Shown one piece after another: positions 1,607-11,807 of a stretch of 11,807 nt of DNA. Below the pieces are notes generated by a model. It did no database searches. It had not been told where the DNA came from and worked only from the letters and a program-made list of their open reading frames with translations. The position numbers were made by a program, and so were the translations under genes. This DNA is from a virus. The number at the start of each line of letters is the position of its first letter. Within the stretch, counting starts at the first letter, position 1. The DNA lies in IMG/VR virus record IMGVR_UViG_3300028840_004049. One strand, written 5' to 3'.

Positions 1607-1828
1607 ATGGCCACGACCATTGTTCAGCAACTCAGAATCCAACGAGGGCTTTCCCAACGCAGTTTGGCCGATCTGGCTGGGTGCTCCAACGCCACAATCT
1701 CTCTTCTAGAACGTGGAGAGCTGAAACCCAGACCACAGCTCGTTCGACGCCTCGCCGCGGCCCTTCAGACATCGCCGTCCCTCCTGAGTCGAGCCCTCCA
1801 GACACTGGAGGTGGCTGATGCTCAGTAA
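1607..1828 (+). CDS. XRE/Cro-CI family helix-turn-helix transcriptional regulator
   Basis: LRIQRGLSQRSLADLAGCSNATISLLERGELKPRPQLVRRLAAAL is a canonical HTH_XRE pattern. AGGAGG at 1596-1601 lies 5 nt before ATG 1607, whereas the ORF-track start at 1592 has no SD. Confidence 0.85.
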   Translation: MATTIVQQLRIQRGLSQRSLADLAGCSNATISLLERGELKPRPQLVRRLAAALQTSPSLLSRALQTLEVADAQ

Positions 1829-2102
1829 ACGCCTCCTGGTACTCGCTGAAGAATTCGCTGGTCTCGCTCTCGAGCTCGAGGCCCATGGGGCCCGGGACGA
1901 GGCCGGCGTCGCTCCCCTCCTGGATACGGACGCTGCGGCCGAGATCCTCTCAGTGAGCTCGTCCACCGTCCGCGAGCTCGTGGCCATGGGCCAGATCCCC
2001 TACATCTCACTCTCCCCTCCGGGCGCCAAGCGCCGGATCGTCCGCTTCGATGCGCAGGAACTCCGGGCCTGGTGGCTTGAGCGCCAGGAGGGCGGCCGGT
2101 GA
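1818..2102 (+). CDS. Excisionase/AlpA-type (MerR-like HTH_17) DNA-binding protein
   Basis: LLDTDAAAEILSVSSSTVRELVAMGQIPYISL...RRIVRFDAQELRAWW fits the excisionase-family HTH pattern (PF12728-like). It overlaps the upstream stop by 11 nt and the downstream start as GTGA. Confidence 0.75.
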   Translation: MLSKRLLVLAEEFAGLALELEAHGARDEAGVAPLLDTDAAAEILSVSSSTVRELVAMGQIPYISLSPPGAKRRIVRFDAQELRAWWLERQEGGR

Positions 2103-3580
2103 ACTCGTCTCTGGATCTTCTCGAACAATCCGAACAGTGGGAAGCCGATCTCAAGGAGGATGAGGAAGCCCTTCAACGCGCAGAGTGCCTGACCGCGCTC
2201 CTCCAGGAAGAGAGAGACGGGACCTCCCCCATCGAGCACACGCACATGGGACTGGCCCAGCTCGCCCTCCAGCTCTTCCCCGGGGAGATCCTCTACGTGC
2301 CGGGATTCGGCGAGTGCGCCTACCACGAGGGCCGGTACGACCTCGGGCCCACGGGCCCCTGGAGGTTCAAGCGCCGGATCGTCAGAGCGGCCAGGTCGAT
2401 TCTCTGGACGGCCACCAGAACCGAGAACCGGCAAGAGCAGAGCGAGCTCATCAAGTGGGGCCGGGCGGCCCAGGCCGATCACTACATCAACGGCGCTGCT
2501 GGGATCCTCCGGACCGATCCCAAGGTCCTGACCTCGGTGGATCAGCTGGATACCGACCCGGACCTTCTCAACACGCCGGCCGGGACCTTCAACCTGGAGA
2601 CGGGCGAGCGGCACGATCACCGGCAGCTGGACCTGTTGACCAAGATCTCGCCGATCAGCCCGGACCCGACGGCCAGGCCCACGAGGTGGCTCAAGACCCT
2701 CCGCTTCGCTTTCGATGGGGACGAGGAGAAGATCGGCTGCTTCCATCGGCTCATGGGGTACGCCGCGAGCGGCCACACGAGCGAGAACCTCATCACGACG
2801 CTGTACGGGACCGGGGCCAACTCGAAGACGACGGTCACCAACGTGATCCAGCGGGTCCTCGGCAACGACTACGCCATGACGGCCGCGCCGGGCCTTCTGC
2901 TCAAGAGGCCCCGGGACACACACCTGACCAGCATTGCCGACCTCTTCGGAAAGCGCCTGGTGCTCAGTTACGAGATGGAGGGTGCCCAGCGACTCGACGA
3001 GCAGCTGCTCAAGAGCGTCACCGGCGGGGACCGGATCCGCGCACGCAAAATGCGCCAGGATGCCTTCGAGTTCGATCCCTCCCACACGCCGCTGCTCATC
3101 GTGAATCACAAGCCGGAGCTCCGCGGGACCGATCACGGACTCTGGCGCCGGATCCTGATCTTCCCCTTCACGGTCACCGTGCCGGAGGAGGACCGAATCA
3201 AGGGCTTCGCCGACATCCTGCTCGAGGAGGAAGGCGGGGCCATCCTGCAGTGGCTCATCGACGGGGCTGCGGCTTGGTACGAGCGCGGTGTCGATCCCCC
3301 GGACTCGCTCCGGGCGGCCACGCAGGCCTACCGCGACGAGAGCGACGTCCTGGGCGGCTTCATCGAGGAGCGTTGCGTCGAGCTTTCCCAGGCGAAGGCG
3401 GCGGCGGGATTCCTCTACAAGGCCTACCAAGCCTGGGCGGCCGAGAACGGCGAGAGCGCTATCAGCGCAAAGGCTTTCGGGATGCGGCTCAAAGAGCGGG
3501 GATTCCGGCAAAAGCGAACTCCGTCAACAAGATACTGGCTCGGCCTCGGGCTTCAGGCGGATGGAGAGCATGACGCATGA
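2099..3580 (+). CDS. Phage/plasmid primase-helicase, P4/D5 family (D5_N plus SF3 NTPase); no recognisable primase catalytic domain
   Basis: LNTPAGTFNLETGERHDH (D5 N-terminal type), Walker A LYGTGANSKTT, Walker B-like LVLSYEME, then LLIVNHKPEL and WRRILIFPF. This matches TIGR01613-type architecture. The GTG start overlaps the upstream TGA. Confidence 0.85.
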   Translation: MNSSLDLLEQSEQWEADLKEDEEALQRAECLTALLQEERDGTSPIEHTHMGLAQLALQLFPGEILYVPGFGECAYHEGRYDLGPTGPWRFKRRIVRAARSILWTATRTENRQEQSELIKWGRAAQADHYINGAAGILRTDPKVLTSVDQLDTDPDLLNTPAGTFNLETGERHDHRQLDLLTKISPISPDPTARPTRWLKTLRFAFDGDEEKIGCFHRLMGYAASGHTSENLITTLYGTGANSKTTVTNVIQRVLGNDYAMTAAPGLLLKRPRDTHLTSIADLFGKRLVLSYEMEGAQRLDEQLLKSVTGGDRIRARKMRQDAFEFDPSHTPLLIVNHKPELRGTDHGLWRRILIFPFTVTVPEEDRIKGFADILLEEEGGAILQWLIDGAAAWYERGVDPPDSLRAATQAYRDESDVLGGFIEERCVELSQAKAAAGFLYKAYQAWAAENGESAISAKAFGMRLKERGFRQKRTPSTRYWLGLGLQADGEHDA

Positions 3581-3767
3581 CGCATCATGACGCTTTGCCC
3601 CTATTCCCCCCTACAACAACCCCTATAGGGGTAATGGGGAACCCGTGTCACCACGTGTCATGCGTCACTCTTTTCCTGGATTCGATCTCGCGAGTCTCTC
3701 ACGCATGCCCCCTTCTCGGGGGCCTTGATCTCATGATTAACCCTCAGAAGCGGAGTTGTAAGCCACT
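3571..3767. promoter_or_regulatory. Repeat- and palindrome-dense non-coding region, candidate replication origin and/or operon control region
   Basis: TGACGCA at 3571-3577 and 3578-3584, TGACGCT at 3588-3594, inverted TGCGTCA at 3661-3667 and a degenerate TCACGCATG at 3699-3707. GTGTCA x2 at 3645-3650 and 3655-3660. CCCCTA x3 at 3598, 3608 and 3620. Perfect palindromes CCCCTATAGGGG (3620-3631) and CTCGCGAG (3687-3694). GC hairpin GCCCCC-TTCTC-GGGGGC (3707-3723) without a U tract. The region lies directly 3' of the helicase gene. Confidence 0.45.
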
Positions 3768-5042
3768 ATGAGTAAGAAGGATACGAAAGGCAGTTTCCAA
3801 GATGTTTCCAAACCTGGTCGCGTCCGAGTCAAGGACACCGGCTCCCCGTCAACGGAGGAGCATACCGAGAAGGCTGCTGTCGAGGAGCAGCCGACGGAAG
3901 GGCCCGGGGCCGATTGTACGGCGGTCGTCGATGCCCCGGTGTCCCTTCCTTCCGCGGAGGACCTCCTCGGGCTCGTACTCCCAGCGTGGGACAGATCGGG
4001 CCCTGCGAACGTGGGCGGGGATCTTACCGCCGTGAAGCAACCTCGCCCTGCCCCGAACATCTTTGCGGCCCGTGGGCCGAAGATACCCGCCAGGATCAAG
4101 GTCAAACCCTACGTGAGAACTCCCGAGGGCCGTGCGGTCCTGGCCTCTCTCTGGTTCGCCCTAGGCTACATGCGCGGGGTGACCAGTGTGGTGGAGAAGG
4201 TCCGTGCTGAGGCCATGCGGGATTTCACTCGGATGAAGGCGTCGGCCATCAACTTCCTCCGCTGGGCGGCTGCTCGCCAGCTTGAGGAAGAGAGCCTAGC
4301 CAAGGGGCACACACTGGAGTCCCTCGCCGGCCAGTCAGAGCCGAAGCACACGACGCCGGAGCCAAAGAAGGCTGGAGATCCGGGCGAGATCTACAAGGAG
4401 TGCCTGACAAAGGTGGCCTACGCTCGCCAGCTGGTCGAAAAGCTCCACGAGTACCCGGGCTTCGGCAAGCTCGTGGAGGGCCACGTCCTACCCGAGGGTT
4501 TCAAGCTGCGCCTGGATGCGACCGAGCGGGAAATCCGAGACGGCCTGGATGATCTCTGCGCTCAGTTCAGCCCCATCAAGAACCGCCGGGAGTTCGATCA
4601 GCTCTTCGGCCTGACAGCGGACATGGACTACAAGGCCAATGCTGAGCAGGTGGAGCGTCACTTCTGGCGCCTGGCCGCTGGCGCCCGGTCCTCAGCGACG
4701 TTGGCTGGGGGCAGCACTCCCCTTGCGCTCCTACCCCGGTCTGTCGTTCAGGCCAAGTGCGCCGTGCCTGGTGGCCGGTACGTCGTCCTCGAAGACACGT
4801 GGGCTGTGCACGGCGTCTTTAAAGAGCTGGAGGTCCGACTCCACAGCGAGATCCAGACCATTGCACGGCTGCAGGACGAGATCGACGAGTTCGATGCCAA
4901 GGCCAACGACTCCTCTCTTCGTACGAAGGAGCGCCAGGAGGCCTTCTCCGCGCGATCGGCGCGTGAGGGGAAGCGTGGCCGCTGCGAGAAGAAGAAGATC
5001 GAGTTGGAGGGCAAGCTGAGGGAGGTCGAGCATGGCAGCTGA
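3768..5042 (+). CDS. Hypothetical protein, 424 aa (low-complexity N-terminus, charged helical C-terminus)
   Basis: Long ORF opening the packaging-side operon. The N-terminal ~110 aa are rich in P/E/T/G and the C-terminal ~70 aa are heptad-like (LHSEIQTIARLQDEIDEFDAKAND...KKKIELEGKLREVE). No family recognised. Confidence 0.75.
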   Translation: MSKKDTKGSFQDVSKPGRVRVKDTGSPSTEEHTEKAAVEEQPTEGPGADCTAVVDAPVSLPSAEDLLGLVLPAWDRSGPANVGGDLTAVKQPRPAPNIFAARGPKIPARIKVKPYVRTPEGRAVLASLWFALGYMRGVTSVVEKVRAEAMRDFTRMKASAINFLRWAAARQLEEESLAKGHTLESLAGQSEPKHTTPEPKKAGDPGEIYKECLTKVAYARQLVEKLHEYPGFGKLVEGHVLPEGFKLRLDATEREIRDGLDDLCAQFSPIKNRREFDQLFGLTADMDYKANAEQVERHFWRLAAGARSSATLAGGSTPLALLPRSVVQAKCAVPGGRYVVLEDTWAVHGVFKELEVRLHSEIQTIARLQDEIDEFDAKANDSSLRTKERQEAFSARSAREGKRGRCEKKKIELEGKLREVEHGS

Positions 5043-5517
5043 GCAGTCTCCACAGGATCGGGCGAGAGCCCTCAGCCGGGAAATGACCAAGAGGGCCTCC
5101 TCGATCAACGCCATCCGGAACGAGCACGGAATGAAAGTGTCCCAGCACGTCAGCCTGATGAGCAGGGCAAGGAAGATCATGGAAGTGCTCGGGGACAGCG
5201 ATAGGCGTGGGCAGCTGACGGGAAACCAGGCCAAGCAGCTGGAGGCTGAGCTCGTCAAGAGCTACGAGGGGATCTATGAGCTGGCCAAGTGGGAAGAACT
5301 CGCAGAGGGCCAGATCACGGAGCTTCAGCAGGAGCTCTCTGGGATCCACAAGGACGCTCGGGAGATCGCCCCGGACCTCATCCCACGGAGCCTACCGGCA
5401 CACCACATGACGAAGCTGACGGCGCTGTTCCGGGATTCGTACCAGAAACTGGATGAGGAGACGGACAGACGTCTCGGCGTTGGCCGTGCGCCCCTCCGGG
5501 TCCAGTCGATGGGGTGA
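5032..5517 (+). CDS. Hypothetical protein, 161 aa (helical, charged)
   Basis: ATG 5032 is preceded by GAGGGAGG (5018-5025). It overlaps the upstream gene by 11 nt and the downstream gene as GTGA. No family recognised. Confidence 0.7.
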   Translation: MAAEQSPQDRARALSREMTKRASSINAIRNEHGMKVSQHVSLMSRARKIMEVLGDSDRRGQLTGNQAKQLEAELVKSYEGIYELAKWEELAEGQITELQQELSGIHKDAREIAPDLIPRSLPAHHMTKLTALFRDSYQKLDEETDRRLGVGRAPLRVQSMG

Positions 5518-6023
5518 GCAAGAAGCCGGGCCGGGGCAAGCAGTGCGTGTACATCAAGGAAGACGGCTCTCGCTGTAAGGGGAATGCCATCAAGGGGACC
5601 GACTACTGCTCCTTCCACAGTGATCTTCCCTCCGTGAAGGAGAAGATGCGGCTGGGGCGACTCCAGGGAGCCGGGACGCGCGTCATCCAGCGGATTCGGG
5701 AGGAACCTCCGATCCCCCTCCGAACGCCTCAGGATGCGCTCACGGTGCTGGAGGATGCCCTGAATCTGATCCGGGCCGTGGGGACCGAGCCGGACCGGTA
5801 CGGCGCGCTCGTGACACAGTTCGTTCGCGCCGGCCTGGAGGCGATGAAGCTGATCCAGACCGAGGAGGTCTCCGAGCAGGAGCTCGTCGAGCTCGATGAA
5901 GCGATCCGCGAGGTTGAGAAGAGCGCGGAGATTGACCTGGCCAAGATGCCTCCCCACCTGAGGGAGGCTTTCGAGGAGTGGATGAGTGTCTCGGAAACGG
6001 ATACTCCAGAAGCTGGCCACTGA
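5514..6023 (+). CDS. Zn-ribbon-like protein in the small-terminase position (putative TerS)
   Basis: The N-terminus KQCVYIKEDGSRCKGNAIKGTDYCSFH carries a C-x9-C-x11-C-x2-H pattern. The gene sits immediately upstream of, and overlaps, the large terminase gene. The functional call is positional only. Confidence 0.35.
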   Translation: MSKKPGRGKQCVYIKEDGSRCKGNAIKGTDYCSFHSDLPSVKEKMRLGRLQGAGTRVIQRIREEPPIPLRTPQDALTVLEDALNLIRAVGTEPDRYGALVTQFVRAGLEAMKLIQTEEVSEQELVELDEAIREVEKSAEIDLAKMPPHLREAFEEWMSVSETDTPEAGH

Positions 6024-7395
6024 TTTCTGGACCTTCGTCGCGGTCTGTGTGAAGACCTTCGACGAGAACGAGCCGGATCCAGGCCTGCGCATGGCCAAGC
6101 CCTTCCCGAGGTTTCTCTACCTCCAACGCGTGGCCGAGGCGCTCCAGCATCACCGGAGCGTCATCGTGCTCAAGCCCCGGCAGATGGGCCTGTCCTGGCT
6201 CGTCGTGGCCTACGCCCTCTGGCGTGTGCTCTTCCACCGCGGGGAGCGGGCCCTGATCGTCTCCAAGCGTGAGAAGGACGCCTTTCACCTGAAGGATCGG
6301 GCGACAGCGATCCTCGACAACCTCCCAAACACGGTCCGCAACTCCCTGGATGTTCGTTCGGCCGACACTCGCGGGGAGATCGTCTTCCGAGGGGGCGGGG
6401 CCGTCCACTTCCTGCCGGCCTCGCCCTCCATCGGGAGAACCTACACAGCCAACCTGGTGATCCTCGACGAGGCGGCCTACCTGCCCGACGCGGAGAAGAT
6501 GTTCGCCTCCCTGGCCCCCACTCTCTCCGGAGGCGGGCGCCTGGTGGCCCTCAGTACTCCGAACGGAGTCGGCGGCCTCTTTCACGAGCTCTGGGTCAAG
6601 GCCCATGAGCGTGGTCTCCATCGGATCCGGCTCCGCTGGAACGATCACCCCGAGCGAGACCAGGCTTGGTTCGACGATGCCAGCGAAGCGCTCTCCCCCA
6701 GGCTGGCCGCTCAGGAGTACGGGGGTGACTTCCTGCAGTCGGGCTCCGTCGTCTTCGACGAGCAATTCCTGGGGCTCCGGGCAAAGCCCTACCTCGACGG
6801 GCAGATCAAGGCGGCCCGTGACCAGGCCCGCGACGACCGCGACGACACGCCCTTCCTGATCGGCGTGGACGTAGCCGAGGGCCACGAGGACAGTGACTAT
6901 TCCGTGGCCACGGTCCTCCACAAGCGAGGCGAGGAATTCATCCAGGCAGCAACCCTCGCCGGCCGGTGGCGCCCGGACGTCTTCGCGCAGAAGCTCGCCC
7001 GATTGCTGGATCTCTTCCCGGGAATCGTCGGCGTCGAGAAGAACGGGCCCGGGGGCATGGTGATCCTCGAGCTCGAGCGGCTCGGCTACTCACCTCGACT
7101 GTACCGTCACCGAGAATGGGATGAGCGTGGCCGGAAGAAGACGCGCGTCGGCTGGGTCACGTCCACGAAGAGCAAGCCGTTGATGATCGGAGAGCTCGAG
7201 GCTGCGCTCAGGACTGGAGCCATCCACCTCTCGGACTCCCCCACTCTCGAGGAGCTTCGGATCTACGAGTACACCGATTCCGCGGCGCAGTACACGTCCG
7301 CGCCAACGGGATTCCATGACGACCGAGTGATCGCCCTCGCGATCGCCTGGCAGATGCGCAAGCGCGCCGGCCGCGAGCTTGCAACGTTTGGATAG
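5986..7395 (+). CDS. terL: Terminase large subunit
   Basis: Walker A-like VLKPRQMGLSW, Walker B LVILDEAAY and coupling motif LSTPNG. The RNaseH-like nuclease half shows IGVDVAEGHEDSDYSV, GVEKNGPGG and HDDRVIALAIAW. GTG start at 5986 with GAGGAG at 5972-5977. Confidence 0.85.
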   Translation: MSRKRILQKLATDFWTFVAVCVKTFDENEPDPGLRMAKPFPRFLYLQRVAEALQHHRSVIVLKPRQMGLSWLVVAYALWRVLFHRGERALIVSKREKDAFHLKDRATAILDNLPNTVRNSLDVRSADTRGEIVFRGGGAVHFLPASPSIGRTYTANLVILDEAAYLPDAEKMFASLAPTLSGGGRLVALSTPNGVGGLFHELWVKAHERGLHRIRLRWNDHPERDQAWFDDASEALSPRLAAQEYGGDFLQSGSVVFDEQFLGLRAKPYLDGQIKAARDQARDDRDDTPFLIGVDVAEGHEDSDYSVATVLHKRGEEFIQAATLAGRWRPDVFAQKLARLLDLFPGIVGVEKNGPGGMVILELERLGYSPRLYRHREWDERGRKKTRVGWVTSTKSKPLMIGELEAALRTGAIHLSDSPTLEELRIYEYTDSAAQYTSAPTGFHDDRVIALAIAWQMRKRAGRELATFG

Positions 7396-7410: not shown

Positions 7411-9372
7411 ATGAGTAGCACCATCACTCGCAAGGGTGTCCTTGAGTTCCAGGTAAAGGGAGTCTCCAAGTCAAAGGGCCAGCTGGCGGCAATGACCTCA
7501 GGGCTTGATAGCCTTAAGAGTACCATTCTTGGTGCAGTGACAGCTTTCGGCTCTCTGAAAGCCACACAGACTGCGATGGAATGGGGAGAAGAAGCGGCGA
7601 AGCTTCATGATGTCGAACGTGCTTTCGAAAACATGGCCGAGAGTGCCGGCGTCGATGGAGTCGCGCTTCTCGAAAAGATGAAGAAGGCCACCGGCGAGAC
7701 CGTTTCCGAACTTCAGCTCATGCAGCAGGCCAACACGGCGATGCTCTTAGACCTCCCCGTGGATCGTTTCGACGAAATCCTCTCCATCGCTCGATCGGCT
7801 GCCCTGTCCACTGGCCAAGAGATGGACTACATGCTCCAGTCTATCGTGACGGGCCTGGGGCGTCAGTCCAAACTCTTCCTCGATAACCTGGGGATCCTGG
7901 TAGATGTCGAGAAAGCCCAGGATGACTACGCGCGGTCTGTCGGTGTCAGCGCACGAGATCTCACGGAGATGGAGCGCAAGCAGGTATTCGTCAACGCGGC
8001 TCTTGAGGCTGGCCGATTGAATATCGAGAAGCTGGGCGGCCTAGTGGGATCTGAAACGGATCCGTTCCGGCGCCTTCATGTCGAGGTCGAAGAACTGAAG
8101 ACAGCTATTGGGGAGGAGTTCCTGGGCGCCCTCTCCTCAGCCACCGGCGGCGTGAATGAGTTCGTCGACCAACTGACCGTGACCCTCGGCGATGAGGGGT
8201 TTGCTGGCGTCTTGGAATCCCTCGACGCAGAGAAACTCGCCCCTCTCTTCGGTGCGGGCGCTGGCAGTAAAATCGGCGGAGTCTTCGGGACAGCTGGCCG
8301 CGCTATCGGTGCTCTGCTAGGCGCTGGAATCGCGTGGGGAGTTGAGCCAGGCATCGAGAAAGCCCTTAGGGAGGGTGCCGTCCGGGAATCGACTGACAGG
8401 ATCGCAAAGGAGTTCCAGATCCGTTCCAAGGATCTGATCGAAGGAAGCCGGGACTTGATGGCTCAGTTGACCAGATGGGGTCAGATGGCCGTCCCGAAGG
8501 ATGTCCTTGCTCCTCTGGCCCGAGACCTCAGCGCCTTCAATTCCAACCTGGGAGAGGCCACCTCAACCTTCAGTAATCTCGTGTTCGCTGAAGAGTGGCT
8601 TGGCCAGCTTGGTGATCGATTCCATGATCTGGGGATCCAGGTTCAAGAGGGTTCGAGTGCTCTGGAGGCGTTGGAGGCGACGGCCGGAAATGGTGTTGTC
8701 CAGGAGGCTCTCTTCAGCACCGGATCCATGGTGGCTGAATTGCGTGGTCAGTATCTCGATCTATCCTGGGCGGCCGTAGAGGGTTTCGAGGTGATGGCTG
8801 ACACCTCGCTGTCCTGGGAGTCGAGAACTGCGCAGGCAATCGCCAGCGTCCTTGAAAACAACGCCTACCTGACAGCGTCCTTCAAGAATGCCCTCTTGAT
8901 GGGGAAGATCTCGTCAAAATCCATCGGCACCTACCTGCAGGAAATGGCTCGTATGGCGATAGCAGCGAAGTCCGCCGAGAGCGCGGTCAACGCCCTCTTC
9001 TACGCGGCCGAGGGCGTCGCTGCCGCAGCCTTCGGCAACTTCGCCCAAGCGGGAGGGCTCTTCAAATCAGCAGCCATGCACGGCGCTATCGCAGCAGGAG
9101 CCGGAGCTCTCGCTTCTATCGGTCCCTCCATGGGCCCACAGGAGTATTCCTCCGCGTCGCCCGGGTACATGGGCAGTGATAGCCTCGCCAGTATGCCAAG
9201 TGGCGGCTCCGAGCGCTCCGTCCACGTCACGCGCACCGCGCCTGTAACCTACAATGTGACACATATTTACCACGGGACCGTCAACTTCGGCTCCCAGGAC
9301 CAGGCCAGCGCTGGCGCGATCCAGGACGTGCTCGACGCTGGGGAGATCTACCTACCAGGCGAAGTGCCGTAG
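7411..9372 (+). CDS. Tail tape-measure-like protein (TP901/minor-tail type N-terminal core, Gly/Ala-rich hydrophobic segments)
   Basis: The N-terminal ~200 aa (AFENMAESAGVDGVALLEKMKKATGETVSELQLMQQANTAMLLDL...LDNLGILVDVEKAQDDYARSVGVSARDLTEMERKQVFVNAALEAG) resemble the tape-measure core. Later segments are hydrophobic (LFGAGAGSKIGGVFGTAGRAIGALLGAGIAWG and AMHGAIAAGAGALASIG). Strong SD GAAGGAG at 7399-7405. Confidence 0.65.
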   Translation: MSSTITRKGVLEFQVKGVSKSKGQLAAMTSGLDSLKSTILGAVTAFGSLKATQTAMEWGEEAAKLHDVERAFENMAESAGVDGVALLEKMKKATGETVSELQLMQQANTAMLLDLPVDRFDEILSIARSAALSTGQEMDYMLQSIVTGLGRQSKLFLDNLGILVDVEKAQDDYARSVGVSARDLTEMERKQVFVNAALEAGRLNIEKLGGLVGSETDPFRRLHVEVEELKTAIGEEFLGALSSATGGVNEFVDQLTVTLGDEGFAGVLESLDAEKLAPLFGAGAGSKIGGVFGTAGRAIGALLGAGIAWGVEPGIEKALREGAVRESTDRIAKEFQIRSKDLIEGSRDLMAQLTRWGQMAVPKDVLAPLARDLSAFNSNLGEATSTFSNLVFAEEWLGQLGDRFHDLGIQVQEGSSALEALEATAGNGVVQEALFSTGSMVAELRGQYLDLSWAAVEGFEVMADTSLSWESRTAQAIASVLENNAYLTASFKNALLMGKISSKSIGTYLQEMARMAIAAKSAESAVNALFYAAEGVAAAAFGNFAQAGGLFKSAAMHGAIAAGAGALASIGPSMGPQEYSSASPGYMGSDSLASMPSGGSERSVHVTRTAPVTYNVTHIYHGTVNFGSQDQASAGAIQDVLDAGEIYLPGEVP

Positions 9373-9416: not shown

Positions 9417-9450
9417 TTGACTCTATCCAGGAAGATTGTACAATGTACAA
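9417..9450 (+). promoter_or_regulatory. Near-consensus sigma70 promoter overlapped by tandem TGTACAA repeats (candidate operator)
   Basis: TTGACT (9417-9422), a 16-nt spacer, then TACAAT (9439-9444). TGTACAA occurs twice in tandem at 9437-9443 and 9444-9450, each containing the palindrome TGTACA. Confidence 0.6.
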
Positions 9451-9457
9451 CAGACCC

Positions 9458-9646
9458 ATGAAGGCACACGAGCTGAAAAAGTGGAGAGAGGCCCTGGGCC
9501 TGACGCAGCGAGAGCTGGCCGAGAAGCTCTACGTCACGAAGGATGCCGTCGCATCCTGGGAAACTGGAAGACGCAAGGTCCCAGCCTACCTCCATCTCGC
9601 CATGAAGCAGCTCGAGAGCCCCAACCGCCGAAAGGGGAAACCATGA
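9458..9646 (+). CDS. Short XRE-family HTH regulator (62 aa from ATG 9458; the ORF-track start 9443 lies inside the -10 box)
   Basis: LKKWREALGLTQRELAEKLYVTKDAVASWETGRRKVPAYLHLAM is a canonical HTH_XRE pattern with no peptidase or sensor domain. No SD precedes either ATG, and ATG 9458 would lie about 6-8 nt from the predicted transcription start. Confidence 0.8.
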   Translation: MKAHELKKWREALGLTQRELAEKLYVTKDAVASWETGRRKVPAYLHLAMKQLESPNRRKGKP

Positions 9647-9912: not shown

Positions 9913-10154
9913 TGGATCTCCTTCACCGAGTTTACGATCTCGACAGCCCTAAAGGAGCGGAACACTTCAGCAAGAACTTGCGGGAAGTCGCCGACATGAT
10001 TGATGATGGACGGCTCCTCCCGAGCTTTGTGCAGCTAAGCCTCATGACTCAAGAAAATGAAGCTGGACTCCGGGTCTACTTCGCCGCGTGGAGTCGCTCT
10101 CGTATGGGGCATCCGCGAGAAATGAAAGTCCTCCCCGGCGGGAAGGAGTCCTGA
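9909..10154 (+). CDS. Hypothetical small protein, 81 aa (paralog B)
   Basis: ATGA overlap with the upstream gene and TGATG overlap with int. It shares YDLD..KG.E....L...A..I......P.F..LSL.T..N with the 89-aa protein. Confidence 0.65.
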   Translation: MMDLLHRVYDLDSPKGAEHFSKNLREVADMIDDGRLLPSFVQLSLMTQENEAGLRVYFAAWSRSRMGHPREMKVLPGGKES

Positions 10155-11347
10155 TGGCTTGCGTGAGGAAGTACCGCGGCAAGTGGGTTATCGACTATCG
10201 AGACCGTCAGGGGAAGCGCCGCATCAAGCGCGTTCGGACACAGAAGGAAGGCCGAACGCTCCTGGCTGAGACCCTCGTGAGCATCAAGGCCGGGACGCAC
10301 CGCCCGGACGCAGATAGCATCCAGTTCCGCGAGTACGCCGAGGAGTGGCTCCGCAGCCGGATCTCCGACGGTCTCCGGCCGGGAACCTGGAAGACCTACG
10401 AGTACCAGCTGAGGGACTACCTCCTCCAGGAGGAGTTCGGATTCGATGGCGAGAAGCTCTCGGAGATCGACCTCCCTCGGGTCAAGAAGTTCAAGGCTGA
10501 TCTGATAGCCCACTGCTCCCAAAAGAACGGCGGATCCCTCTCGGACCGCTCCATCAACATGGTCCTGACGATGCTGGGGACGATTCTCCGGGCCTCCGTG
10601 GAAGACGGATACCGGGCCTTCAATCCGATGGCCGGCATGAAGAAGCTCCGCTGCGAGAAGCAGGAAGCGATCCCACTGGACATCGACCGCGGGGAGGTCC
10701 AGAAGGCTCTCGAGGGCGCTCGGGAGATCGGTGAGGACTTCGCCATGATGGTCCGGCTCTCGATCCTGACGGGCCTTCGCCGTGGAGAGCTCCTGGCGCT
10801 CCGCTGGCGCTCTCTTAATTTGGATGGCATGACGGCCCATGTGACCGAGAATTTCACACCTACCGGGCTTGGATCGCCGAAAACGGCCGCTGGGAGGCGG
10901 TCCGTGGACCTGTCACCGGAGCTCATCCCCGACCTCAAGCGTTTCCAGCTCCGTAAGGGCAATCCCGAAGGCGACGCCTTCCTCTTCGCCCGGGTTGGCA
11001 GTGAGGATCCTACGTCGCCGAGTTCGCTCCCCCGGCCAGAGACCGTGAGCAACTTCCTCTGGGGCCGGCTCGTTCGCCAGGAGGGTCTCCTGGGCCTCGC
11101 CACGAGGATGGATTCAGAGAGGCGACTCAGCTGGCACAGCCTCCGGCACACCTTCGCCTCGCTCTATATCCAGCAGAACGCTCCCATGAAGTACATCTCG
11201 ACGCAGATGGGCCACAGTTCCATCAAAATCACGATGGACACATACGGCCACCTGATGCCCTCGACGGGCAAGCACTTCGCGGCGAAACTCGGCAGGGAGG
11301 TTCTCTCTGGGGCTGGAGCTGTTGAAGTTTCAGCGGCTGTCCGGTAA
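10154..11347 (+). CDS. int: Tyrosine recombinase / phage integrase with an N-terminal arm-type DNA-binding domain
   Basis: The N-terminus YRGKWVIDYRDRQGKRRIKRVRTQKEGRTLL fits an AP2-like arm-binding domain. Catalytic motifs are LTGLRRGELLALRW (Arg), WHSLRHTFAS (H-x-x-R) and GHSSIKITMDTYGHL (His, Tyr). ATG 10154 is preceded by GGAAGGAG (10141-10148), and the ORF-track start 10088 is probably too early. Confidence 0.9.
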   Translation: MACVRKYRGKWVIDYRDRQGKRRIKRVRTQKEGRTLLAETLVSIKAGTHRPDADSIQFREYAEEWLRSRISDGLRPGTWKTYEYQLRDYLLQEEFGFDGEKLSEIDLPRVKKFKADLIAHCSQKNGGSLSDRSINMVLTMLGTILRASVEDGYRAFNPMAGMKKLRCEKQEAIPLDIDRGEVQKALEGAREIGEDFAMMVRLSILTGLRRGELLALRWRSLNLDGMTAHVTENFTPTGLGSPKTAAGRRSVDLSPELIPDLKRFQLRKGNPEGDAFLFARVGSEDPTSPSSLPRPETVSNFLWGRLVRQEGLLGLATRMDSERRLSWHSLRHTFASLYIQQNAPMKYISTQMGHSSIKITMDTYGHLMPSTGKHFAAKLGREVLSGAGAVEVSAAVR

Positions 11348-11379
11348 GGTTTCGGAAACCCCTACCTAAGGAGGATCCG

Positions 11380-11523
11380 ATGGCTCTTCCCAAGGCAACG
11401 TCTGAGGCCAGAAAGGCTCTGCAGCGTGAAGAGGCGAGCTCGAAGTCCTTGAAGCTGATTGCGGAGTATCTCAAGAGCATCGACAAGACGCTGAAAGCGA
11501 TCGAGAAGAAGACGGGCAAGTGA
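11380..11523 (+). CDS. Small 47-aa lysine-rich helical protein (below the ORF-track length cutoff)
   Basis: ATG 11380 lies 4 nt after TAAGGAGGA (11367-11375). My translation is MALPKATSEARKALQREEASSKSLKLIAEYLKSIDKTLKAIEKKTGK, with TGA at 11521-11523. A terminator hairpin follows. Confidence 0.55.
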   Translation: MALPKATSEARKALQREEASSKSLKLIAEYLKSIDKTLKAIEKKTGK

Positions 11524-11534
11524 TCTAGCGAGAC

Positions 11535-11553
11535 TGGAAACAGAATGGAAACA
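11535..11553. repeat. TGGAAACA-N3-TGGAAACA pair, candidate integrase arm-type site
   Basis: TGGAAACA at 11535-11542 and 11546-11553 in an 8-3-8 layout, same orientation as the pair at 11771-11789 (=108-126). Confidence 0.45.
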
Positions 11554-11580
11554 TTCTCACGAGATCTTGGCCGACACGAC

Positions 11581-11620
11581 GAAGCCCCTCTTCCTAAGTC
11601 CAAGGAAGAGGGGCTTTTCG
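11581..11620 (+). terminator. Rho-independent terminator of the int / small-ORF transcript
   Basis: A 13-14 bp stem GAAGCCCCTCTTCC / GGAAGAGGGGCTTT with the 9-nt loop TAAGTCCAA, ending in TTTT (11615-11618). On the minus strand the hairpin is not followed by a T run. Confidence 0.7.
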
Positions 11621-11621
11621 C

Positions 11622-11660
11622 GGGTGGAGCCAAGGGGGATCGAACCCCTGACCTCATGAC
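11622..11660 (-). other. 3' fragment of a tRNA-Ala-like or tmRNA-like gene (variable loop, T arm, acceptor 3' strand); candidate att core
   Basis: The minus strand reads GAGGTC-AGGGG-TTCGATC-CCCCT-TGGCTCC-A-CC, giving a canonical T arm, a 7-nt acceptor strand and discriminator A. The U opposite position 3 is compatible with the G3:U70 pair shared by tRNA-Ala and tmRNA. Sequence further 5' does not fold into anticodon or D arms and there is no matching GGGGCCA/GGAGCCA 5' strand, so this is not an intact tRNA. Confidence 0.55.
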
Positions 11661-11663
11661 TGC

Positions 11664-11807
11664 CAGAAGGGTTTCCGGCTCTCTACCCGGCGCTTGGGCG
11701 TGTAACTCACTGAAAATGCAAGCCCCTCCCACGAGCTGCGATATCTTTCGCTGCCATATTCCGTGGATGCTGGAAACACCGTGGAAACAGGGAAGCTGGA
11801 GCTTGAC
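11664..11807. repeat. Right copy of the perfect 144-bp terminal direct repeat
   Basis: Identical to nt 1-144. It begins 3 nt beyond the tRNA-like fragment and runs to the last base of the window. It contains the TGGAAACA pair at 11771-11789. Confidence 0.95.

Follow-up and report, generated by a model that had tools for sequence, protein, structure and literature searches.

Does the region downstream of the integrase gene (int) in IMG/VR virus record IMGVR_UViG_3300028840_004049, in which part of a tRNA lies between pairs of short repeats, serve to insert this DNA into a host chromosome and, if so, into which gene? The record comprises 11,807 nucleotides, here called the window, and contains an 11,663-bp circular element. 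We consider it likely that positions 11535-11789 constitute the attachment site (attP) of this circular integrative element, with a tRNA-Ala(GGC) gene as the predicted chromosomal partner site (attB). This reading is preferred because of the identity of the core to tRNA-Ala(GGC), the non-random repeats, a layout that is shared across the integrase clade, and the circular form of the element. An attP had already been proposed in a first-pass annotation made from the letters of the window, and that interpretation as a whole turned out to be essentially right. We infer that the integrase binds the repeats and that this particular element integrates. The parts of the site and its integrase are as follows.

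10154-11347, plus strand: tyrosine integrase gene, 397 aa from an ATG (MACVRKYRGKW...), not from an upstream GTG
11535-11553, plus strand: int-proximal pair of putative arm-type sites, TGGAAACA-GAA-TGGAAACA, starting 88 nt ahead of the common core
11583-11615, no strand assigned: hairpin of 13 bp, rich in G+C and with TTTTC after it on the plus strand, between the int-proximal pair and the tRNA end
11623-11666, minus strand: common core, with anticodon loop, 3' anticodon stem, variable loop, T arm, 3' acceptor strand, discriminator A and CC
11660-11666, minus strand: CTGGCAG in tRNA sense, heptamer of the anticodon loop and predicted region of overlap (strand exchange)
11771-11789 (= 108-126), plus strand: int-distal pair of putative arm-type sites, TGGAAACA-CCG-TGGAAACA, starting 105 nt past the loop edge of the core
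1-144, no strand assigned: assembly overlap of the circular molecule, identical to 11664-11807; unit length 11,663 bp

The tRNA-derived core and the circular element

Read on the minus strand, positions 11625-11655 are GAGGTC / AGGGG-TTCGATC-CCCCT / TGGCTCC / A, i.e., the variable loop, T arm, 3' acceptor strand and discriminator of a tRNA, in letters and parts just as the first-pass annotation had described them. This 31-mer (GAGGTC...CTCCA) was used as a query to scan genomes, one per species, and each match was extended base by base. At least 120 genome stretches were found, essentially all of them tRNA-Ala genes or fragments thereof. Among the matches listed, 11 tRNA-Ala(GGC) genes prolong the identity by 11 bases on the 5' side, which take in the 3' anticodon stem TCATG, of which the last base, G, alone falls within the 31-mer, and the entire loop CTGGCAG. 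Eight of these 11 genes also prolong it by two bases, C74 and C75, on the 3' side. The core is 44 nt long, extending from window position 11623 (C75) to 11666 (C32, the first base of the anticodon loop CTGGCAG), and its minus strand represents positions 32-75 of tRNA-Ala(GGC). Identity, again among the matches listed, is 44/44 to the tRNA-Ala(ggc) genes of L008, L035, L040, L058, L065, L090, L107 and L110, and 43/44 to three further tRNA-Ala(GGC) genes. It breaks off at the boundary between the loop and the 5' stem, where the genes have CATGA and the window has CCCTT. The matching genes, which are called tRNA-Ala(ggc) by ARAGORN, come from metagenome-assembled genomes (MAGs) labelled Krumholzibacteriota, Latescibacterota, Zixibacteria, Fibrobacteraceae and Blastocatellia, and from unclassified bacteria. 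The core thus equals chromosomal tRNA-Ala(GGC) genes, as a lambda-type attP requires of its attB, and the block of identity runs from the anticodon loop to the tRNA's 3' end, as in class A of Islander. The earlier view that only the 3' part of a tRNA is present was correct, but the block is longer than then seen, since it reaches the anticodon loop.

Where most matching genes have CCA, the window carries CCC, and the restored gene would therefore depend on CCA addition. This fits with the absence of an encoded CCA from three of the matching genes as well.

From the U at position 70, either tRNA-Ala or ssrA, the gene for transfer-messenger RNA (tmRNA), had been suggested as the target. Alanine held up, whereas a fragment of ssrA is rejected: ARAGORN found no tRNA or tmRNA gene anywhere in the window, the tmRNA covariance models reached at best 15.6 and 16.6 bits in a permissive Rfam scan against gathering scores of 84 and 47, and the anticodon loop and stem match tRNA-Ala exactly. 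A complete cloverleaf is not present either, as the sequence 5' of the loop is unlike tRNA-Ala. The first-pass annotation had also considered that a full-length tmRNA might be called by ARAGORN or an Infernal-type scan, or that no tRNA gene in any genome would match the fragment; no such tmRNA was called in the window, and the matches to tRNA-Ala(GGC) genes proved to be perfect.

The circular form, too, was borne out. The terminal repeat is exact over its 144 nt (1-144 equals 11664-11807), as had been reported. The integrase is present on 14 contigs, 11 of them with a length of ~11.8 kb and all of them within 20 kb. In four complete assemblies, each from a different sample, the ends overlap by 123-144 nt (144 nt in the window, 123-141 nt in the other three), with a different breakpoint in each and the same unit of 11,663 bp. 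As the 44-bp core is shorter than these overlaps, collapsed att repeats do not account for them. The assemblies support the circular form of an 11,663-bp element. Contrary to what had been thought, the site does not span the junction of the window: attP in its full extent (11535-11789) is contained in the window, independently of that junction.

These data also bear on the idea that the fragment belongs to a tmRNA or tRNA gene of the host and that chromosomal DNA was falsely circularised through att repeats to give the window. The weak Rfam tmRNA matches, which cover 11570-11653, would agree with it, but they lie far under the gathering scores, ARAGORN called no such gene, and the sequence 5' of the loop is not tRNA. 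Moreover, the four overlaps are longer than the core and lead to the same 11,663-bp unit. In view of the ARAGORN result, the Rfam scores, the boundary of the core and the four breakpoints, this idea is refuted, and we assign it next to no probability.

Some other observations concern tRNA-Ala genes in general. The three matches of the 31-mer in IMG/VR are ordinary tRNA-Ala sequences with different anticodon stems and were discarded. In L008, L035, L058, L065, L097 and L107, tRNA-Ala(GGC) adjoins a divergent tRNA-Leu(CAA) gene (six loci of the eight best-matching ones that were examined by ARAGORN), a shared arrangement that might help to narrow the host lineage. L011, L012, L031, L039, L069, L083 and L085 contain tRNA-Ala 3' fragments preceded by non-tRNA sequence. 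Such fragments are displaced fragments or att cores of other islands, and tRNA-Ala genes are frequent integration targets.

Paired repeats and the integrase clade

The 8-mer TGGAAACA occurs seven times in the window versus 0.19 copies expected, and none of 200 shuffled sequences reached seven. Two pairs flank the core, both with N3 spacing, 11-bp phasing and the same orientation. The first-pass annotation had recognised these two identical pairs, at 11535-11553 and 11771-11789, but had missed a third one:

3792-3810, minus strand: third pair, TGGAAACA-TCT-TGGAAACT, inverted, with one mismatch, in codons 9-15 of the open reading frame (ORF) at 3768-5042

For this pair, 0.02 chance matches would be expected in the whole window, even with up to three mismatches; it is possibly an extra, perhaps regulatory, site for the same binding protein. 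As in lambda-type attP sites, the repeated sites flank the core on both sides and are distinct from it in sequence. The pairs appear to behave as arm-type sites, to which the integrase presumably binds. Within the coding sequence of the integrase (LLALRWRSL), at window 10793-10811, there is also an exact 11-nt-phased pair of another sequence, CTGGCGCT-CCG-CTGGCGCT, which is probably a coding coincidence.

The best evidence on the nature of the pairs comes from comparison. Contigs were fetched for integrases that are 33-59% identical to that of the window, and six of them, with integrases of 33-52% identity, carry a tRNA or tRNA fragment beside int. They are listed below with integrase and identity, tRNA, repeat pair and its position, and distance from the start of the pair to the tRNA's 3' end.

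L135: integrase P0003, 52%; tRNA-Arg(ACG); TGGGCACA-N3-TGGGCACA at 2668-2686; 86 nt
L129: integrase P0004, 39%; tRNA-Lys(TTT); TGGGTACA-N3-TGGGTACA at 4107-4125; 88 nt
L139: integrase P0010, 33%; tRNA-Arg(ACG); TGGTAGCA-N3-TGGTAGCA at 11113-11131; 69 nt
L141: integrase P0008, 35%; tRNA-Ala(GGC); TGGTAGCA-N3-TGGTAGCA at 5258-5276; 68 nt
L138: integrase P0006, 37%; tRNA-Met; TGTTGACA / TGTTTACA at 11119-11137; 87 nt
L140: integrase P0007, 37%; tRNA-Arg(CCT) fragment; TGGGCACA / CGGGCACA at 11062-11080; 83 nt

All six have an 11-nt-phased pair on the int side of a reverse-strand tRNA, at 68-88 nt from its 3' end and in four of them at 83-88 nt; the value for the window is 88 nt. Exact 8-mer pairs at this spacing have a background of 0.005 per 200 nt, as determined in 807 kb of unrelated loci, and in L129, L135 and L139 the int-side pair is the sole exact 11-nt-phased pair of the whole locus. 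The pair of L138 is a 7-of-8 match rather than an exact one. L141 has one further pair, which is inverted (3875-3893, minus strand) and intergenic, upstream of the HTH_3-int operon and away from the att site. The arm motif differs by lineage within the frame TG-N4-CA. Since the pairs stay by the tRNA end while the cargo differs in every element, the motif travels with the integrase and the tRNA end and not with the cargo. The earlier suggestion that the 8-mers are arm-type sites is strengthened by these comparisons of sequences.

Two of the relatives display the layout on both sides of the core. The element in L138 is integrated: ~5.9 kb lie between two direct copies (5324-5368 and 11206-11250) of a 45-bp tRNA-Met segment that starts at loop position 32 and extends to the 3' end. 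Pairs are present only at 5475 and 11119; the former is 107 nt inward of the displaced fragment and the latter 87 nt ahead of the intact tRNA, versus 105 and 88 nt in the window. L140, the genome of a tailed phage, is in the attP state and contains, in this order, a pair, a hairpin, the reverse 3' fragment of tRNA-Arg(CCT) and, 95 nt on, a second pair; a complete tRNA was not found in it. It is a second attP with the layout of the window.

As to the remaining relatives, L132, with an integrase that is 59% identical to that of the window, has CTTGTAAGT repeats at 15-nt spacing after int, followed by restriction-modification cargo; there is no tRNA on this contig, and it was left unused. L135 shares in positions 1-2809 a backbone with the window (terminase 67%, HTH_3 protein 59% and integrase 52% identical), without the gene for the 653-aa protein. 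It adjoins tRNA-Arg(ACG) and not tRNA-Ala; therefore, this backbone has switched tRNA targets. In L129, the P0004 element contains a GmrSD-type gene between int and the tRNA and, at 300-620, upstream of its HTH_17 gene, a dense array of GGTCCTAG / TAGGACCA and GGACCAC repeats, which looks like the iterons of a replication origin.

The integrase itself appears to be complete. Its ATG start is the one used by the gene callers on 14 contigs. The protein contains Pfam Phage_integrase (PF00589, 1e-15) and SAM-like domains, and it matches the PHROG 1 integrase with 2.6e-67. R209, K243, H328, R331, H354 and Y364 are invariant in the alignment of the integrase family, so the catalytic hexad is kept. 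For residues 3-46, a beta-beta-beta-alpha fold is predicted, with a predicted local distance difference test (pLDDT) score of ~88. This is the topology of the arm-binding domains at the N termini of lambda Int, where a beta-sheet is combined with a helix, and of Tn916 Int, with its three-stranded sheet. The N-terminal block MACVRKxRGKWVIDYRDxxGKR is kept across the family, and Pfam Arm-DNA-bind_4 is matched by six of the 60 aligned family members. An arm-binding N-terminal domain, which had been suspected before, is probable on the basis of this structural model; a family or fold match for this domain of the window protein itself, as detailed below, was not obtained.

Several observations weigh against the attP assignment. 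The inverted pair at 3792-3810 is located far from attP and is also compatible with a regulatory role of the protein that binds the 8-mer. The same role would fit the promoter-like sequence TTGACT-N16-AATTAT that adjoins the int-distal pair. The N-terminal domain of the window integrase had no Pfam match, even at E = 10 and when searched as an isolated domain, and Foldseek found no significant match in the PDB for a 75-residue N-terminal model; missing Foldseek matches are common for domains of 50 residues. In the contigs and metagenomes covered by the search, an integrated copy of the element was not found, nor any contig of more than 20 kb with int or ORF182, and the attL-junction pattern had 0 matches in the metagenomes of the Joint Genome Institute (JGI). 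No symmetric core-type site was seen on the attP side of the loop, where CCCTT does not mirror the 3' stem. Finally, the 44-nt core is common to MAGs of several phyla and hence points to no single host.

The first of these points lead to another explanation of the TGGAAACA pairs, i.e., that they are operators or sites for a directionality factor, bound by the HTH_3 protein (9443-9646) or by the product of the following gene, with the tRNA fragment as the att core all the same.

1818-2102, plus strand: HTH_17 (AlpA / excisionase-type) gene; Pfam HTH_17 3.7e-9; PHROG 66 'excisionase and transcriptional regulator'

The HTH_17 gene is indeed a candidate, by its sequence matches, for a directionality factor or regulator, and HTH_17 and/or HTH_3 genes are found beside int in all relatives examined, with an HTH_17 gene immediately upstream of int in L129, L130, L131 and L138. 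The third pair stands at the start of ORF 3768-5042, ~3.7 kb from attP the shorter way round, the int-distal pair is located 14 nt upstream of the promoter-like sequence, the inverted pair of L141 precedes its HTH_3-int operon, and a direct Pfam arm-domain match is missing for the window integrase. On the other hand, there is a pair to either side of the core, the orientation is uniform, and the distances found in the window, L138 and L140 differ by no more than a few nt, as in the geometry of arm-type sites. The int-proximal pair of L135, L138, L139, L140 and L141 is situated in the 3'-terminal part of the coding sequence of int, hardly a sensible position for an operator, and the N terminus of the integrase has the predicted arm-binding topology. 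It is unlikely, in our estimate, that the pairs are operators or directionality-factor sites instead of arm-type sites. Nevertheless, the pairs outside attP and the promoter-like sequence suggest that the protein that binds the 8-mer may also regulate transcription.

Proposed strand exchange in the anticodon loop

If the pairs are arm-type sites, the N-terminal domain of the integrase would bind them, whilst its central and catalytic domains would bind the core, and the bound integrase would fold attP into an intasome. This complex would capture the host tRNA-Ala(GGC) gene, and strands would be exchanged in or beside the anticodon-loop heptamer. The 5' half of the host gene would then be joined to the element-borne 3' half, leaving the tRNA intact, and the displaced host 3' half would mark the far end of the element. 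The predicted attL is ...GGGAGAGCGCATGA joined to CTGSCAGTCATGAGG...CTCCACCCGCGAAAAGCCCC, and the predicted attR is ...GGAAACCCTT-CTGSCAG...CTCCA joined to host sequence. Strand exchange is placed in the heptamer at 11660-11666 because the identity block of the window and the repeat of L138 both begin at loop position 32; the crossover position would accordingly lie within this heptamer. Among mycobacteriophage integrases, the anticodon loop is a common location of the core (PMC10865867), and anticodon-centred sites are a recognised crossover class in Islander, with 2,083 of 3,919 islands (PMC4383910).

The four complete circles differ at a single position of 11,663, i.e., base 11663, the centre of the loop heptamer. 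The window and L125 have C on the plus strand, the other two circles, L124 and L126, have G, and so does L127. The heptamer is palindromic except for this base, and the host stem-loop CATGA-CTGGCAG-TCATG is a 17-bp palindrome except for its central base, which therefore alone sets the orientation of attB. The G variant departs from tRNA-Ala(GGC) and reads GCC in the tRNA sense. The window contig begins at 11664, directly after the polymorphic base, which would be expected of a sample with both variants. In the case of IntDOT, it was reported that the overlap sequence fixes the orientation of integration and that a symmetric overlap leads to both orientations (PMC2817482). Conceivably, the G/C difference is the footprint of strand exchange across a nearly symmetric overlap. 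An integrase that tolerates a mismatch at the centre, or that accepts either orientation of attB, would create a heteroduplex at the central base, and replication would yield both variants. Hypothetically, such a heteroduplex at the sole asymmetric base, when resolved by replication, would explain why the polymorphism is confined to it, but we consider the footprint a rather doubtful origin of the difference. If it were true, the variant core would place the anticodon GCC in a body with alanine identity (G3:U70), and integration could make an alanine tRNA that reads glycine codons. The polymorphism at the centre of the overlap is the one unusual detail of the site, and it offers a small natural experiment on the setting of orientation under nearly symmetric overlap.

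A second variant is found in L127, which is without 11667-11776 (110 bp), the junction being located at 2745-2760 of that contig. The left breakpoint, between 11666 and 11667, coincides with the edge of the loop, and the right one is within the first 8-mer of the int-distal pair. The junction shows no microhomology; to the left of the two breakpoints stand the 7-mers CTGGCAG and CTGGAAA, respectively. L137, which stems from another data set, starts exactly at window position 11777, the right breakpoint, as expected at a graph branch if the deletion variant is present there too. Perhaps the deletion was made by the integrase between the core and a look-alike site (CTGGCAG versus CTGGAAA), and it supports a cut between 11666 and 11667, both with the limit that it is seen in one contig.

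Both variants could also be signs of decay. The element, which has its own primase-helicase and large terminase, might now exist solely as a plasmid-like or phage-like episome, with an att architecture that is no longer used. All complete contigs (11-12 of the 14-15 that carry the element) are free circles and none is integrated, three of the five contigs that span the core have the loop-centre variant that mismatches tRNA-Ala(GGC), and 110 bp of the distal arm are gone in one variant. Such a relic would not be expected to have an intact int with all catalytic residues, a core that is 44/44 identical to the tRNA in two assemblies, and two perfect arm pairs. Besides, short-read assemblies routinely break at integration junctions, so that a missing integrated copy is weak evidence. 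We regard disuse of the site as improbable.

Known systems and neighbouring features

The usual layout of tRNA-targeting systems is a common core of 30-45 bp, which contains the tRNA's 3' half and is flanked by pairs of arm-type sites (PMC10865867). The attP sites of the mycobacteriophage L5 type, such as those of Boilgate and Omega (PMC10865867), are similar to that of the window in their core of ~43-45 bp with the 3' half of a tRNA from the anticodon loop, in their flanking arm-type pairs, in the N-terminal arm-binding domain of the integrase, which is predicted here, and in the rebuilding of the tRNA at one junction. The window differs in its integrase, which is at most 28% identical to any integrase of deposited phages, in its own putative arm motif (TGGnnnCA in 11-bp-phased pairs) and predicted target (tRNA-Ala GGC), and in being an 11.7-kb element instead of a 50-kb phage. 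Lambda and its attP (PMC4880445) are comparable in the size of attP (~250 bp), in having arm-type sites to either side of the core, and in the expected 7-bp overlap. In contrast to the window, with one tight pair per side, lambda has 2 + 3 arm sites with accessory-protein sites between them, and its core is 15 bp, located between genes and not in a tRNA. The two integrases match weakly, with E about 1e-7 over the catalytic and core-binding parts.

Like the islands of the Islander 'A' class (PMC4383910), the element supplies the 3' part of the tRNA and has int by the tRNA-proximal end; the Islander entries are integrated islands, consisting of a tRNA gene plus a displaced fragment, whereas the window is known only as a free circle. 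The best sequence match in the PDB is with the Tn1549 / Tn916-type integrases (6EN0 and relatives), in the core-binding and catalytic domains (E = 1e-25); the solved Tn1549 constructs align only from query position 105 on, so that the N-domain is outside this comparison. Unlike what is proposed for the window, these integrases tolerate non-identical overlaps and do not target tRNA genes.

The site is probably a classical heterobivalent tRNA-targeting attP, ordinary for its kind, and belongs to an uncharacterised integrase clade. For this clade, a fully delimited attP, with its core, two arm pairs and probable terminator, and a predicted attB are now at hand. From member to member of the clade, the tRNA and the TGGnnnCA-type arm motif change, with the distance conserved. 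Matched sets of integrase, attP and attB are raw material for site-specific integration tools and for mapping genomic islands. The 11.7-kb circle is thereby marked as an integrative element and not as a plain plasmid or lytic virus.

Two open reading frames near the site deserve mention.

11380-11523, plus strand: small ORF of 47 aa between int and the attachment site, called on all contigs of the element
11229-11732, minus strand: ORF across attP, treated as spurious

The 47-aa product had no Pfam match. The minus-strand ORF was dismissed, as no gene is called there on any contig of the element. The int gene ends 188 nt ahead of the int-proximal pair. The hairpin at 11583-11615 folds as RNA with -34.2 kcal/mol (z = -5.1), and none of 200 shuffled sequences folds as well. 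[quoted passage not shown] The consensus terminator scan did not list it, because only four T follow. In L129, L138, L139 and L140, a hairpin was recognised by eye at the equivalent place.

Besides the integrase, the circle encodes the HTH_17 protein, whose gene overlaps that of a D5-type primase-helicase, a large terminase, the HTH_3 protein (9443-9646) and several proteins without a family match. Searches of IMG/VR with the integrase and with the 653-aa protein yielded no relative. For ORF424 (3768-5042), a word-indexed search of 5.8 billion proteins found no relative and an exhaustive search found three remote ones; its single-sequence model is all-helical and of low confidence (pLDDT 49). 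ORF653 has a weak match at its N terminus alone, to tape-measure-type PHROGs. A large terminase is present and no recognisable capsid or portal was seen, also with regard to the products of 3768-5042, 5986-7395 and 7411-9372; perhaps the element is a satellite-like hijacker and not a complete phage. The largest intergenic region besides attP, at 3571-3667, contains a 40-nt imperfect inverted repeat of TGACGCA / TGACGC units, built around a C-rich / G-rich centre, which could be an origin or an operator.

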